Positions 5,880 through 10,951 of a stretch of DNA of 64,000 nucleotides are shown in pieces. The position numbers were made by a program, and so were the translations under genes. The notes under the pieces were generated by a model that made no database searches, had not been told where the DNA came from, and saw only the letters and a program-made list of their open reading frames with translations. Origin of the DNA: Candidatus Latescibacterota bacterium (GTDB lineage Bacteria; Latescibacterota; UBA2968; UBA8231). The stretch spans positions 2,784,001 through 2,848,000 of the forward strand of contig OZ242214.1 of the NCBI GenBank assembly GCA_965206595.1, given 5' to 3'. Position 1 is the first letter of the stretch. Each line of letters begins with the position of its first letter.

Positions 5880-6057
5880 CTTTTTCTCCTGATGGAGAGG
5901 GGGGGGTGCCCGTCGTGGACCCTGCCCCGCGATACGAAGGTTGGTGGCCGGGCCGGCCGCGGCCCCGGGGCATGGCGGAGCCGCTTCGATAAAGCGGGTT
6001 GGGTATGCCGTGGTCAAGGGACCTGCCCGGCTCTGCGGCGGCTTCCCGGTGGCCGGT

Positions 6058-7353
6058 TCAGGTCAACAGATCGAGGACGTTGCGATGGGGCCTGTTGTCC
6101 AGCCCCTTTTCGGGGCCGCTTCCCGGGCCGGGCTGGTAGTCGTTCGGGTAGGCGGCGACGTATTCGAGCGGGGTCACATCGCGCAGCAGGGTGAAACCGT
6201 TGCCCTGACCGGGTACGCGGACATTCGCGGTGACGCCGGGATCCGCCCCGTTTTCGAGCAGCAGCCGCAGCACCGGAAAGCTGCGGTTGTGGTTCGAGGT
6301 GACGGCGTGAAAGACCGGGGTCTCGTTGCCGAACCCCTCCCTGTCGGGCTGGGCCCTGCGGTTGGCGTCCGCTCCTGCGGCGATCAGGGCCCGGGCGGCC
6401 TCGAGGGACCCGTACTCCGCGCAGAGATGCAGGAGGGTCGGGCGCTGCAGGGGCGCCCCGCCGTAAAAGCCGCCGAATCCCCTGTCCTCCTCCTGGCGGA
6501 AGCCGGAGTGCGCGTCGACGAGCCCCGGATCTTCGGCCAGCCTCCCCTGCAGCAGGTCGATCCGGCCCCTGAGGAGGTCCATCTCGGGGCCGTCCGTGTA
6601 GTTCGCGCCTGCCTGGACCAGAAGCTCGAGGCATTTCTCGCGGTGTTCGTGCTGGTAGGTGTCGAGGACCATGTCGAGAGCGGTGCCGTCCCGGTCCCGG
6701 TAGTTCGGGTCGGCGCCGTGCTCGAGCAGGAACCGCAGGCCGTCGGGATTCAGGCTCTCGCAAGGTCCCATGATGGTGCCGCCGCCGTAGTGGGTGGCCG
6801 GGTCCACCCCGTGGGCGAGCAGCTCCTCCATCACCGGCAGATTGCCCTGTGTGGCGGCGCGGGAGAGGGCGTCGTCCTCCGGGTCGGCCCCGCCTGCGAC
6901 AAGCAGGCGGACGATGGCGACCTGGTTCGGCCCCTCGGCGTTGTCCCCCGCGGCGAAGCGCAGGGGCGTGCAGCGCCGGGAGCGGTCGGGGGTCATGTTG
7001 ACGTCCACGATCTGCGGATGCGCCTCGAGCACCTGGCGCACGCCGCCGACGTCGCCGGCGTTGACCGCCTTGCGAAGCGCTGCGAGCGGAGCGGAGAGCC
7101 CCGCGCCGGGCTCGGTCGCATCGACTACTCTGGCCCACTCCGAATAGCCGTGTTCCTTGGCGATGACGTGCTGCGCTTCCTGCAGGGACAGGTCCGTTGC
7201 CGCGGTCCCCGCCGGCTCGCCGGACAGGCGCGGCAGGTGCGTGCCGGCGCGCACCTGTGCCTGCGGCCGGCCGTCGCGGTACTCCTTCAACAATTTCTTG
7301 GCTTGCTTCTTGAGATGGGCCAGGCTGGCCCGTTTCGGGAGTCGTCCAGACAT
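6058..7353 (-). CDS. Ankyrin-repeat protein with N-terminal helical domain (LPxRxSLxHLKKQAK...EAQHVIAxEHGYxxW)
   Basis: Ankyrin motifs (TPLRFAA, LLx[24 protein letters not shown]); SD AAGGAG. Confidence 0.9.
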
Positions 7354-7484
7354 GTGGATCCTCTCCTTCGGGAGCCCGAGGTCCGCTGGTTCTCAGGCAA
7401 AAGAAGGTCAGGTTGTCTCGACAAATCGGGAACGTGGGGTGGGTTCAACCCTTCCCGCGGACGTGGAGGCTCCCCCGAAGCACG
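7354..7484 (-). ncRNA. Candidate structured cis-regulatory leader RNA of the ankyrin gene
   Basis: Nested complementary segments: 7366-7376 with 7468-7480, GTCCGC 7381-7386 with GCGGAC 7457-7462, GAAGG/CCTTC, and hairpins at 7413-7424 and 7441-7451. The outer stem overlaps the SD. Confidence 0.55.
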
Positions 7485-7489
7485 AGCCG

Positions 7490-7518
7490 ATTTTATCAGG
7501 CGCCCGCCGGATGGTCAA
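7490..7518 (-). promoter_or_regulatory. Sigma70-type promoter TTGACC-17-TAAAAT with extended -10 TG
   Basis: Minus strand reads TTGACC atccggcgggcgcctga TAAAAT, directly upstream of the structured leader. Confidence 0.7.
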
Positions 7519-7629
7519 CCTATGGCGATCCTGCCAGCCTCGACGCCGGGCTGACTTCGGCACCCTCCCGGCCCCGGGAGATCGACACCGGCCGCTGCCC
7601 CGCGGCGCTCTCCCGGACCTGAGAAACCG

Positions 7630-7700
7630 ATGCTTTCCAAACAGCAGATACGCCACTACAGGACCTTCGGTTTCGCCGTCATGCCGCAGGTCCTCCGCCC
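7630..7700 (+). pseudogene. N-terminal remnant of a phytanoyl-CoA dioxygenase-family gene
   Basis: MLSKQQIRHYRTFGFAVMPQVL resembles MLTEEQVRRFNTFGFLVFRNAL at 10559; homology then stops. Confidence 0.55.
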
Positions 7701-8055
7701 CGACAACGGGGACTTTCCCGCCGGCTCCCGAAAAAAAGGAGCCTGTCATGGCAGATTACAGGATCTGCTGGACGGAGATCAACGTCTCCCTGTACGAGAC
7801 CGCCGGGGACAGCCTGCTCTTCCGGTCGCCTCGCTGACAAAGAGACGGAAGTCCGGCGTTTTCACCTTCGGAATTGGCCGGACCTGTTTTCGACGCAACG
7901 ATACCGGGCTTTGGACCCGGACCTTCCAGAACCCCTGATGCACAAGCTCGCATCCCCCTCCCCTCCCCCGCACCCGCCTCGACCCCTCCCCTTCCATCCT
8001 CCCGATACCGCAGATCTACCTGCCCGAAAGGCTTGGCGAGCCTGTTGGGCAACAG

Positions 8056-9613
8056 TCAGGGCACCGCCTGCCCCGCCATCACCCCGGTGCAGCGCTCCCC
8101 GTCGACGGCGACCTGCCCGTTGACGAGCACGTAGGGGATGCCGACGGGGTACTGCTTCGGATCCTCGTAGGTGGCGGTGTCGATGACGCGGTCCGGATCG
8201 AAGAGGACGACGTCGGCGAAGCAGCCTTTCTGCAGACGCCCCCGCGAGCGGAGGCCGAACCGGCGCGCCGGGTTGTCGGTCATGCGCTGTATCATCTGTT
8301 CGAGGCTGAGGACGCCGAAGCGACGCCGCAGGCGGCCGAGGAAGCGGGGGTAGGCTCCGTAACAACGCGGGTGGGGCATGCTTCCCGTGGGGGTGATGTC
8401 GCTGCAGGCCATGTAGTCGGGACGGGCCAGCAGCTCGAGCGAATCGCGGCTGACCTGCCTCCAGAGACCGGTGTTCACCGGCGGCGCGGACAGGTAGCCG
8501 ATCTTCAGCTCCTCCTCCAGCAGCAGCTCGCACAGCGTCTCCCCCGGCGACATCGGTCAGGGTCATACCCTCCAGCCCGGGGTTCTTCGGCAGAGAGGTG
8601 AACACGACCTCGTCGAGGGGTTCGTACTCCTCCTCGAGGAAGCGGGCGATGCGCGCCCGCTCCGCCGGATCGGCGAGCCGCCGGAGAATGGCGTCCGGCC
8701 CCCCTTCCTGGGCGAACCCCGGGAGGGAGGCGACGCAGATGCTGCTGCCGGCGGGGTAGGGATAGATGTCCAGGCTGCAGTCGACTCCTTCCGCCTTGGC
8801 CCGGTCGATGGGCCCCAACAGGGCTTCCACCTGCCCGGCGTTGTGGGCCCCCGTCCTGAAGTGGGCGAAATGGACCTTGACCCCGGTCTCCCGGCCGATG
8901 TGAAGCGCCTCCTCGACGCCGTCGCCGCCGTGGGCGCGATCGAGCTCGACCTTTCTCGGCTCGACCACGTAGACGCTGCCGGCATCGGCAACCGTACGGC
9001 ACAGGTCGAGGAACTCGGCGGTGTCTCCCCAGGGACTGGGATAGTAGCTGGCCCCCGTGGAAAAGCCGACGGCCCCCTCCTCGAGGCCTTGCGCTACCAT
9101 GCGCCTGGCCTCCTTGGCGTCGTCGCCGGTCAGGGGCACGTCGCGGAACCCGAGGAGCTCGAGACGGATGGCCCCGTGCGGCACGAGATAGGCGGTGTTG
9201 ATGGCGACCCGGCGGTGGTAGTGGCTGCGGAAAGCGGCGACCGAATCCATCGCCAGGCCGGGGATCGGTTCGCCGAGCAGGCCGGCAAGCCAGCGCCGGT
9301 AGGTGAGGTGGTTGGCCGCCGACAGGGGGGCGAAGGACATTCCGTCGAGGCCCATGACCTCGGTGGTGATCCCCTGCCGCAGCCCGTTGGCGTGCTGCGG
9401 GTCGGCTAGCAGGTCCCCCTCGGAGTGGGTGTGGGTGTCGATGAAGCCGGGCGCCACCGCCAGACCGCGGGCATCGATGGCGCGCGCCGCCTCGGCCTCG
9501 GCGAGATCGCCGACCTCTTCGATGCGCTCGCCGATGATGCCGATGTCGGCGCGCCGGCCGGGAGCCCCGGTCCCGTCGTACACGGTACCGCCGCGGATTA
9601 CGATGTCGAACAC
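8056..9613 (-). pseudogene. N-acyl-D-amino-acid deacylase (D-aminoacylase), frameshifted near 8550
   Basis: PGFIDTHTH in the first ORF; HPRCYGAYPRFL and ADVVLFDP in the second frame (8056-8553). Confidence 0.85.
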
Positions 9614-9670
9614 AATGCCCTCCTGAGAATGTTCACCGCCGGTTTTCCCGCACAGGTGAGTTCGCCGGCT

Positions 9671-10559
9671 TCACGACGCGATCCTCTCGATCTCCCACTT
9701 GCCGTTCCTGACCACCGCCCTCACCCCCCGCTGTTCCGGCTCCATGGAGGCGAACCTGCGCAGGCTCTTCAGCCACGCTGCCCGCCGTGGGTGCTTTCCG
9801 GCCTCCGCCGCCCATTCCTCCGGGATGCCCGGCGGGTTCCAGAGGTCCGCGGAGTTGTCCCGCCTGCTGAGGTGACCGCGGGCGTTGAGGATCGTCAGCT
9901 CGACCTCCGCGGGCTTGCGGGGATAGTTGTAATAGGTGAAGGAGCACATGCGCCGGCCCCGGGCGCCCCCCTTGCTGGCGTGGTAGGTGCGCAGGTCGAA
10001 GGCGACCATGTCCCCCTGGCCGGAATCGCAGACGACGCAGGGAACGGTGCCGATCCCGGCCAGGGCGGCCCGCCGCTCTTGCGGGGTCGCCGCGGCGCGG
10101 CTGAAGCGGGCCCCGATCGGGTCGACCGCGGCGACCCTGTCGTGGAAGGGGCGCAGGTGGCTGCCCGGGATCAGGCGCAGGGCCCCGGTATCGGCCCGCA
10201 CCGGATCGAGGTAGATCGCGAACTTGATGCCGTAGGCCTCGTAGCCCCCGGCATCGTAGTGCCAGACCGTATCCCCGGCGTAGTGGTGCAGCAGGGGGTT
10301 GGCGCAGATGAGCCGTCCGAATAGCTGCTCGCCGACCCCGGTGAGACGGTCGTCCTCGAACAGGCTGGCGGTGAACGGCGTGGAGGGAACCAGTCCGCTC
10401 ATGTCGCGGGGCCTCGGCGAGCGGGACGAGGCGCACCGATTCGGCTACGCGGGTGGCGTGCTCCCTTCGCAGCAGGTCCACCTCGGCGGGGCTGAGCGCG
10501 TTCCTGAAAACGAGGAAACCGAAGGTGTTGAAGCGGCGCACCTGCTCCTCCGTCAACAT
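9671..10559 (-). pseudogene. Phytanoyl-CoA dioxygenase family protein, frameshifted near 10400
   Basis: N-terminus MLTEEQVRRFNTFGFLV in one frame; WHYD, GALRLIPGSH and GDMVAFDLRTYHAS in the other frame. Confidence 0.8.
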
Positions 10560-10951
10560 CGGTGGATCTCCTTTCCGTCGCATCCGGGGATCTGGGCGAA
10601 GCCCGGGGCATTCCCGGGAAATCGCCGGCCATGTCGCCTTCGCAGCCGACTATATTGCAATGCCGGTCTGGCTGCAATCTCTTCCATGGGCATGATTCGA
10701 GGAGGTGAGGAATGCCCGATCCGAGCTGGAAGACTCCCAGAGGAAATGGGAACCCGTTTCGTTTCCTTGGCCCAGCCATCCCCTGCCCGGTACGCCCCCT
10801 TCATGTCCATGGCCGACCGGGCCCCTCGGCGATCCGGTTCCCGGCGGTCTATCTTCCGGGACCGGCACCAGGCCAGGAGCCAATTGACATTTGAGTCCGG
10901 CCAACCGCGGATGAGCCGGGAAATGCTGACTGGCCGCGGCCGCGAGCACCG

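Follow-up and report, generated by a model that had tools for sequence, protein, structure and literature searches.

Several translational riboswitches, namely SAM-II, preQ1-II, preQ1-III and the NAD+-II 'pnuC motif', occlude the Shine-Dalgarno (SD) sequence with an H-type pseudoknot. A different kind of control is found in autogenous leaders such as the ribosomal protein S15 pseudoknot, the ThrRS operator and the RNase E and PNPase leaders, which are bound by the protein encoded downstream. Here we compare with these systems a leader RNA found in a 64,000-nt stretch of DNA from Candidatus Latescibacterota bacterium (GCA_965206595.1, contig OZ242214.1, positions 2,784,001 to 2,848,000), hereafter the window. 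The element occupies 7486-7351 of the minus strand and precedes a gene for an ankyrin protein. We are highly confident that it is one copy of a real RNA family, linked to the N-terminal domain (N-domain) of the encoded protein.

With the riboswitches mentioned, the RNA shares its position as a 5' leader, a covarying pseudoknot and an SD sequence within a helix, and, like the pnuC motif, it is almost exclusively associated with one gene class. The present topology is larger, with three crossing helices and no Rfam match at E ≤ 10, and the gene class is set by an N-terminal domain rather than by the whole protein or pathway. With the autogenous leaders it shares its place before the gene of the presumed binder, a strict linkage to that gene, and a pseudoknot that takes in the ribosome-binding region. 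S15, ThrRS, RNase E and PNPase are established RNA binders with leaders that mostly occur in narrow taxa, whereas the present domain is fused to many C-termini and has up to 16 leader-bearing paralogs per genome.

In its own 7.05-Mb genome, the N-domain of the window gene has two paralogs, one fused to a bifunctional-nuclease domain and the other a leader-bearing stand-alone protein of 108 amino acids (L003). A whole-protein search of 41 genomes (the window's own and 40 relatives) gave matches in 17. The 170 nt upstream of 24 domain-bearing genes with an assignable start were aligned (L032 and L025 were dropped since their start was unclear), and an obvious conserved upstream element was common to 21 of them. 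These 21 sequences were used for covariance model R1, with pairs given for helices P3 and P4 only. On the window's own genome, R1 found exactly three strong matches, which correspond to its three N-domain genes, all seed members; the next match had an E value of 0.045. In a 151-genome sample of the window's phylum, matches at E ≤ 0.001 were present in 61 genomes, with about 198 leader matches overall and a maximum of 16 in one genome. Leader-plus-domain genes are expanded to 10-16 copies in G021, G124, G006 and G086, all from this phylum.

The family extends well beyond this phylum. A sample of 121 genomes around an Acidobacteriaceae carrier, searched with stricter filters, contained 11 genomes with a single copy each. 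A strict DNA pattern that spans only the 5' two-thirds of the leader element was found in a species-representative collection at 120 loci or more (at least 120), in genomes labelled with about ten other phyla. The labels among the matches listed were Acidobacteriota, Gemmatimonadota, Actinomycetes (Amycolatopsis, Actinopolymorpha, Gaiellales), Planctomycetota, Armatimonadota, Chloroflexota, Latescibacterota, Deltaproteobacteria and Dormiibacterota, with Spirochaetia and Gammaproteobacteria represented by one metagenome-assembled genome each. All 100 pattern loci that were searched with the covariance model hold the full-length motif, including the 3' third that the pattern did not select. Leader matches reach E values of 1e-15 to 1e-29 in hundreds of loci, and a motif described elsewhere with GUCCGCGG...CCACC...CUUCUUUC...GCGGAC in its consensus would be the same RNA. 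The window copy, a seed member of both R1 and a second model, R2, scored 92.9 bits with R1 (E 1.8e-22, own genome) and 83.5 bits with R2.

Because the covariance models end on the start codon, the downstream open reading frame (ORF) was defined without choice. Five genomes together contain 31 RNA copies, of which 30 are followed by an N-domain gene, with an ankyrin, FliG_C, sigma-54 ATPase or nuclease C-terminus. A sequence-only reading of the window had proposed that this type of domain is fused to diverse C-terminal parts and preceded by related sequence, which these counts bear out; the RNA is located upstream of its binder's gene, provided that the domain is the binder. Of the N-domain genes in the same five genomes, 30 out of 39 carry the RNA, or 31 with a diverged 28.8-bit copy included. 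For non-seed matches in the window's phylum, the domain follows in frame in 58 of 76 cases (hidden Markov model (HMM) E < 1e-5). Among the remaining 18, nine have the domain in another frame, beyond a stop codon that is in frame, or behind a short first ORF; one case is borderline; and eight are without domain. Seven of these eight begin with the first residues of the domain as judged by eye, and the eighth, L097, does not. In other phyla, the in-frame domain was found after 92 of 102 leader matches.

The C-terminal parts of 60 leader-bearing proteins from the window's phylum comprise Ank (21), FliG_C (11), Sigma54_activat (5), BFN (2), Clp_N (2), FliM (2) and others, and those of 52 proteins from other phyla comprise Ank (47), TPR (3) and LRR (1). 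These counts indicate that the ancestral and commonest form is leader, domain and ankyrin repeats, as in the window. At two loci from different genomes, L091 (2129-2141) and L111 (2147-2161), an in-frame TAA is present at codon 4 or 5, just before a conserved Leu-Pro, and the domain continues in the same frame past it (HMM E 5.8e-17 and 6.7e-26); these stops could reflect pseudogenes, sequencing errors or a downstream restart. At three other places (L101:1147-1700, L112:2001-2600 and G021:C61:35750-36750), the leader precedes a short FliG_C-like ORF of 64-96 amino acids, with the domain gene some 300-400 nt later in another frame, which points to a two-gene unit linking both.

The domain itself is abundant. 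Domain profile A5 retrieved 10,745 cluster representatives at E ≤ 0.001 among 1.84 billion. The best-scoring stretch begins within the first 20 residues in 147 of the best 150 representatives, and two or three tandem copies are common among the representatives. Protein P0006 has three domain copies together with three ClpX-type zinc fingers and four Clp_N domains, an architecture that hints at a link to Clp-type unfoldase adaptors. The N-domain is basic, with a median isoelectric point of 9.3 (9.9 in the window) compared to 5.5 for the rest of the proteins (n = 146), and an AlphaFold model made from 64 sequences has five helices (mean predicted local distance difference test 78, predicted template modelling score 0.64). 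Window residues 1 to about 85 gave no Pfam match at E ≤ 1 and nothing meaningful in NCBIfam (best E 0.13, 11 bits against a 156-bit cut-off), and neither Pfam nor NCBIfam has a model for the N-domain alone. The ESM Atlas returned only 'hypothetical protein' clusters (scores 0.85-0.87), and a homologous-protein search with residues 1-85 gave five matches, none of them named. The first 57 or so positions (4-57) of Pfam PF20066 (Glyoxalase_8), which models the domain fused to a glyoxalase fold, weakly match the N-domain; the best match is the stand-alone protein P0085 (E 5.4e-06, 26.9 bits against a 23.7-bit cut-off), and the window protein gave none.

The features of the locus that are used below, with the evidence for each, are as follows.

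7513-7518, minus strand: -35 hexamer TTGACC (promoter scan).
7490-7495, minus strand: -10 hexamer TAAAAT, preceded by TG (promoter scan; predicted start site around 7483).
7351-7486, minus strand: leader RNA, up to and including the start codon (matched over its full length by covariance models R1 and R2).
7469-7481, minus strand: P1 hairpin GCUU / GAGC, four pairs in the manual register (duplex test, pair counts).
7473-7476, minus strand: PK-A 5' strand GGGG, inside the P1 loop (mutual-information scan).
7457-7462, minus strand: PK-B 5' strand GUCCGC (pair counts on alignments).
7441-7451, minus strand: P3 hairpin GGGUUGAACCC (pair counts).
7436-7439, minus strand: PK-A 3' strand CCCC, directly 3' of P3 (mutual-information scan, pair counts).
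7413-7424, minus strand: small hairpin UUGUCGAGACAA in the variable region, lineage-specific (alignment comparison).
7399-7407, minus strand: anti-SD strand CCUUCUUUU, the 5' strand of P5 (cognate duplex test, minimum free energy (MFE) fold).
7374-7398, minus strand: P4 hairpin GCCUGAG ... CUCGGGC, with the PK-B 3' strand GCGGAC (7386-7381) in its loop (pair counts).
7360-7369, minus strand: Shine-Dalgarno sequence GAAGGAGAGG, the 3' strand of P5 (sequence, MFE fold, duplex test, pair counts).
7099-7353, minus strand: coding region of the N-terminal helical domain, amino acids 1-85 (profile A5, weak PF20066 likeness).
6058-7098, minus strand: remainder of the 431-amino-acid protein, ankyrin repeats and stop codon (Ank_2 E 9.8e-25, four more Ank families).

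Upstream of the N-domain homologs, where the sequence-only reading had proposed to look for covariation, a conserved and covarying structure of six helices (P1, P3, P4, P5, PK-A and PK-B) was found, three of them mutually crossing. The strands follow each other in the order P1-5', PK-A-5', P1-3', PK-B-5', P3, PK-A-3' and a variable stretch, and then P5-5', P4-5', PK-B-3', P4-3', P5-3', 6-10 nt and the start codon. Pairing was evaluated on two alignments: A4, with 99 matches from 97 loci of the window's phylum, and A9, made with R2, with 102 matches, from 60 loci of that phylum and from 40 loci of other phyla picked by the DNA pattern. For the 31 pairs in six helices, 93.5% of the 3,089 cells in A9 are paired, compared to 86.7% in shuffles, and 24 pairs have changes on both sides, compared to 11.0 ± 1.5 in shuffles. 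None of 500 shuffles reached any of the five measures, and slid controls were 44-55% paired. A9 leans towards P1, P3, P4 and P5 because those helices were in model R2; PK-A and PK-B were never part of any model.

The two pseudoknot helices are well conserved. PK-B connects the P4 loop with the strand that separates P1 from P3, and its pairing of GUCCGC with GCGGAC had already been noticed in the sequence-only reading, as a nested stem. In A4, 98.7% of its cells are paired (99% in A9) and four of the six pairs have changes on both sides, with variants GCCCGC/GCGGGC, GUUCGC/GCGAAC, GCCUGC/GCAGGC and AUCCGC/GCGGAU; because its 3' strand sits in the P4 loop, PK-B is a pseudoknot. PK-A, in which the P1 loop pairs with the four bases that follow 'CCCA' on the 3' side of P3, emerged when A9 was scanned for mutual information. 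It is 92.8% paired, and one of its pairs occurs as AU50/GC29/GU7/CG4, another as GC23/AU20/CG18. In the same alignment P3 is 98.8% paired with changes on both sides at all four pairs, and P4 is 98.8% paired, with one pair occurring as UA42/CG41/UG13. All four P1 pairs have changes on both sides, and P1 is paired in only 75.7% of cells because variable loop lengths misalign. Unpaired positions conserved at 95% or more are C7466, G7456, A7453, A7452 and A7440. The RNA has a conserved, covariation-supported structure such as an aptamer would have.

An alignment-free check, in which the two strands of each sequence (cognate) were compared with strands from other members (non-cognate), gave for the P1 arms -8.6 kcal/mol for cognate and -6.8 kcal/mol for non-cognate combinations, with the cognate better in 82% of 197 sequences, and for PK-B a better cognate combination in 76%; p-values of such strand-swap checks overstate significance because the sequences are related. 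The leader alone has an MFE of -52 kcal/mol, against -49.9 ± 3.6 kcal/mol for shuffles (z -0.59; 58 of 200 shuffles fold as well), and single-sequence energies gave no discrimination between alternative structures. Single-sequence thermodynamics is no better than chance; the evidence for the fold is comparative. An extension of the RNA structure into the coding region was considered and rejected, as the conserved LP motif sits at variable offsets (3 to 11 codons) and codon choice near the starts shows only the usual A/T enrichment.

The ribosome-binding site is part of this fold. In the window, P5 is formed by CCUUC (7407-7403) with GAAGG (7369-7365) and by CCU (7412-7410) with AGG (7362-7360), and the RNAfold MFE structure of the leader includes both segments as well as P4. 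The family consensus of the P5 5' strand, ACCUUCUUUCU, matches the 3' tail of the organism's own 16S rRNA (...GAUCACCUCCUUUCU) at 10 of 11 positions, so the leader carries a near copy of the 16S tail. P5 covaries and, in silico, stacks on P4 and PK-B; its anti-SD/SD duplex has an energy of -14.6 kcal/mol for cognate and -11.8 kcal/mol for non-cognate strands, with the cognate better in 94% of 199 sequences. As the 16S-tail look-alike pairs with the extended SD in P5, the fully folded RNA hides the ribosome-binding site, which is the sequestration expected of an expression platform. It is therefore probable that the leader acts in translation through SD sequestration, and the strength of P5 suggests that the default state is closed. 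The sequence-only reading had also placed the SD in a stem; the occlusion holds, with the upstream CCUUC (7407-7403) as the partner instead of the outer stem proposed there.

Apart from PK-B, the earlier pairings had mixed fates, and four of the six conserved helices had escaped notice. The hairpin GGGUUGAACCC is P3 and, together with GUCCGC/GCGGAC, is conserved in the family. The outer stem CUUCGGGGGAGCC/GGCUCCCGAAG was wrong as a family structure, since cognate and non-cognate strands hardly differ (-9.5 and -9.3 kcal/mol, p 0.39, n = 197) and the nearest relative has an uncompensated mismatch; its 5' half coincides with P1 and PK-A, and its 3' half with the P4 3' strand, the linker and the SD. 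In the window sequence alone this stem (7468-7481 with 7365-7377, minus strand) is strong, at -20.2 kcal/mol, possibly as an alternative fold of this lineage in competition with P1, PK-A and P4. The hairpin UUGUCGAGACAA lies in the length-variable region and lacks family conservation, being present only in the window and G001, with other inserts or none in other members. The pairing GAAGG/CCUUC, in which an SD mimic would bind the anti-SD, also failed (cognate -5.0 and non-cognate -4.9 kcal/mol, p 0.09): it is without covariation, takes up two G's that belong to P3 and is in competition with P5. As an alternative 'open' conformer it is conceivable, but we found no support for this.

The leader is framed by a promoter and a start codon. 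The sequence strings quoted in the sequence-only reading were all found in the window, including the near-consensus promoter TTGACC-17-TAAAAT (7518-7490, minus strand), which is the sole such site in 5900-8000 where shuffles predict 0.1. A transcription start near 7483-7484, predicted from the promoter position, is reasonable. The 431-amino-acid ORF (6058-7353, minus strand) begins about 130 nt downstream of the promoter, and its ankyrin repeats start around residue 92 (Ank_2 87.4 bits, Pfam cut-off 27.3 bits), after the region of about 85 amino acids modelled as five helices; the protein is the helical-domain ankyrin protein that had been described. Within 70 nt upstream, 78 of 200 family copies have a sigma-70-like site (at least 9/12), compared to none of 200 control stretches inside coding sequence, and in 77 of these 78 copies the distance from the end of the -10 hexamer to the start of the model is 1-8 nt (mode 3-5). 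Because of this fixed short distance, the leader element represents the entire 5' untranslated region. A same-genus species with 91% protein identity has a nearly unchanged leader. Another same-genus species, with 79% protein identity, has an unrelated upstream sequence in which the gene abuts a same-strand upstream ORF, and no RNA match was found upstream of this ortholog, even by covariance search with filters off.

As an association, the module of RNA plus domain is supported by the genomic comparisons. How it works can be proposed with less certainty. The reading that we tentatively favour is cis translational control of the ankyrin gene with the N-domain as effector, i.e., autogenous control. 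The closed fold would have to be opened or prevented for translation, with some factor shifting the balance. The preferred factor would be the N-domain itself, acting in cis and on paralogs, and its binding could either stabilise or open the fold. Autogenous control by the domain would explain why it is the domain, rather than the C-terminal part, that the leader accompanies. We prefer it because the RNA follows the domain through C-terminal changes, stand-alone proteins carry the leader and the domain is basic. With still more reserve, the N-domain can be viewed as an unrecognised putative RNA-binding domain that would read a dedicated double-pseudoknot leader, forming a portable self-regulating cassette used with many effectors in about ten phyla.

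Several observations weigh against autogenous control. Eight or nine of the 39 N-domain genes in the five genomes are without leader, including the 79%-identity sister-species ortholog of the window gene. No known RNA-binding signature was found in the N-domain, a PDB sequence profile gave only weak matches to designed helical proteins (best E 0.0051), and Foldseek against the PDB gave 14 matches, none at E ≤ 0.001. The RNA core is near-invariant across phyla, while the domain is only about 30-40% identical, and an invariant RNA with a diverged protein is a pattern more usual for small-ligand aptamers; the 40 of 100 loci in A9 that were selected with an exact pattern inflate the conservation at pattern positions. 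The linkage could also have come about by common descent, with duplications keeping the 5' end while C-termini are swapped. Finally, P5 is strong on its own, so simple repression by a bound protein is not obviously needed.

Some of these points agree better with an orphan riboswitch, in which the core with its two pseudoknots binds a small molecule or an ion as an aptamer, the ligand shifts the balance between SD-closed and SD-open states, and the N-domain proteins form the ligand's regulon, with a domain that may sense the same signal. The nearly invariant core nucleotides in genomes labelled with about ten phyla, the intricate fold with its three crossing helices and conserved unpaired positions, the SD-sequestering expression platform and the presence of up to 16 copies per genome are all in line with this. 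We nevertheless consider a riboswitch somewhat unlikely: nothing in the downstream genes, whose products join the N-domain to Ank, FliG_C, sigma-54 ATPase, BFN, TPR and other parts, hints at the metabolism or transport of a ligand, and the RNA tracks the N-terminal domain rather than protein function, with only one of the 31 copies preceding a gene without domain.

A further option is that the leader responds to a different trans-acting factor (a helicase, a small RNA or an RNA-binding protein unrelated to the domain), or that temperature or the kinetics of folding set its state; the linkage would then only reflect shared 5' ancestry. The strong default P5 (mean -14.6 kcal/mol) suggests an active opener, and the family is duplicated within one phylum and single-copy in the Acidobacteriota sample (11 of 121 genomes). 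This option is improbable, since the linkage persists between distant phyla despite domain identities of only about 30%; any such factor would need an equal spread, and none was identified. That there is no functional RNA, with the pairings arising by chance in a GC-rich untranslated region or reflecting a DNA-level operator, is hardly credible: the window fold is indeed no more stable than its shuffles, but compensatory changes occur in six helices on one strand only, hundreds of loci give highly significant matches, and the element has a fixed place between promoter and start codon.

Among the neighbouring genes in the window, an upstream amidohydrolase is split over two frames (7862-9613 and 8056-8553, minus strand), with Amidohydro_3 profile positions 2-118 in one ORF and 361-471 in another, which is a frameshift or assembly indel. 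A PhyH-family dioxygenase is spread over two overlapping frames (9633-10583 and 9671-10402, minus strand). The 102-amino-acid ORF at 7630-7938 (plus strand) has an N-terminal peptide that by eye resembles that of this dioxygenase, with no Pfam match.

The RNA was also compared with existing catalogues. As the sequence-only reading had stated, no named Rfam family was recognised: searching window positions 7200-7800 against Rfam 15 at E ≤ 10 gave only chance matches elsewhere (PVT1_2, 14.1 bits; DnaX, 11.8 bits), and ten loci from several phyla gave nothing at the motif at gathering score. An Acido-Lenti-1 RNA (RF01687, 55.7 bits) at L145:1744-1789 is located about 4.4 kb from a leader copy and is probably unrelated. 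In the portions of the RNA-discovery literature that were covered, including PMC2864571, PMC5737381 and PMC11109978, no structured RNA is tied to ankyrin or the N-domain, though the supplements could contain one, and the word 'ankyrin' has no occurrence in those portions. The candidate motif 'Rhodopirellula-1', listed without Rfam accession as probably cis-regulatory in Proteobacteria and Planctomycetes (Weinberg et al. 2010, PMC2864571, Table 1), resembles the present RNA in having Planctomycetota and Deltaproteobacteria carriers and differs in that the table lists no Acidobacteria or Actinobacteria; by this table entry alone, the two may or may not be identical. The leader represents a genuine and widespread RNA family that is apparently uncatalogued, with a new fold and an unusual coupling at the level of a protein domain.

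If undescribed, the family would be a large class of structured RNAs with an unusual triple-crossing fold, from phyla of soils and sediments to which RNA catalogues give little coverage. RNAs are rarely coupled as strictly as here to a protein domain instead of a pathway, and the coupling provides a handle both on the trigger of the RNA and on what the domain, with its more than 10,000 representatives, does. Either outcome, if true, would be new biology, whether RNA and domain form an autoregulatory cassette or the leader is an orphan riboswitch for a new ligand.

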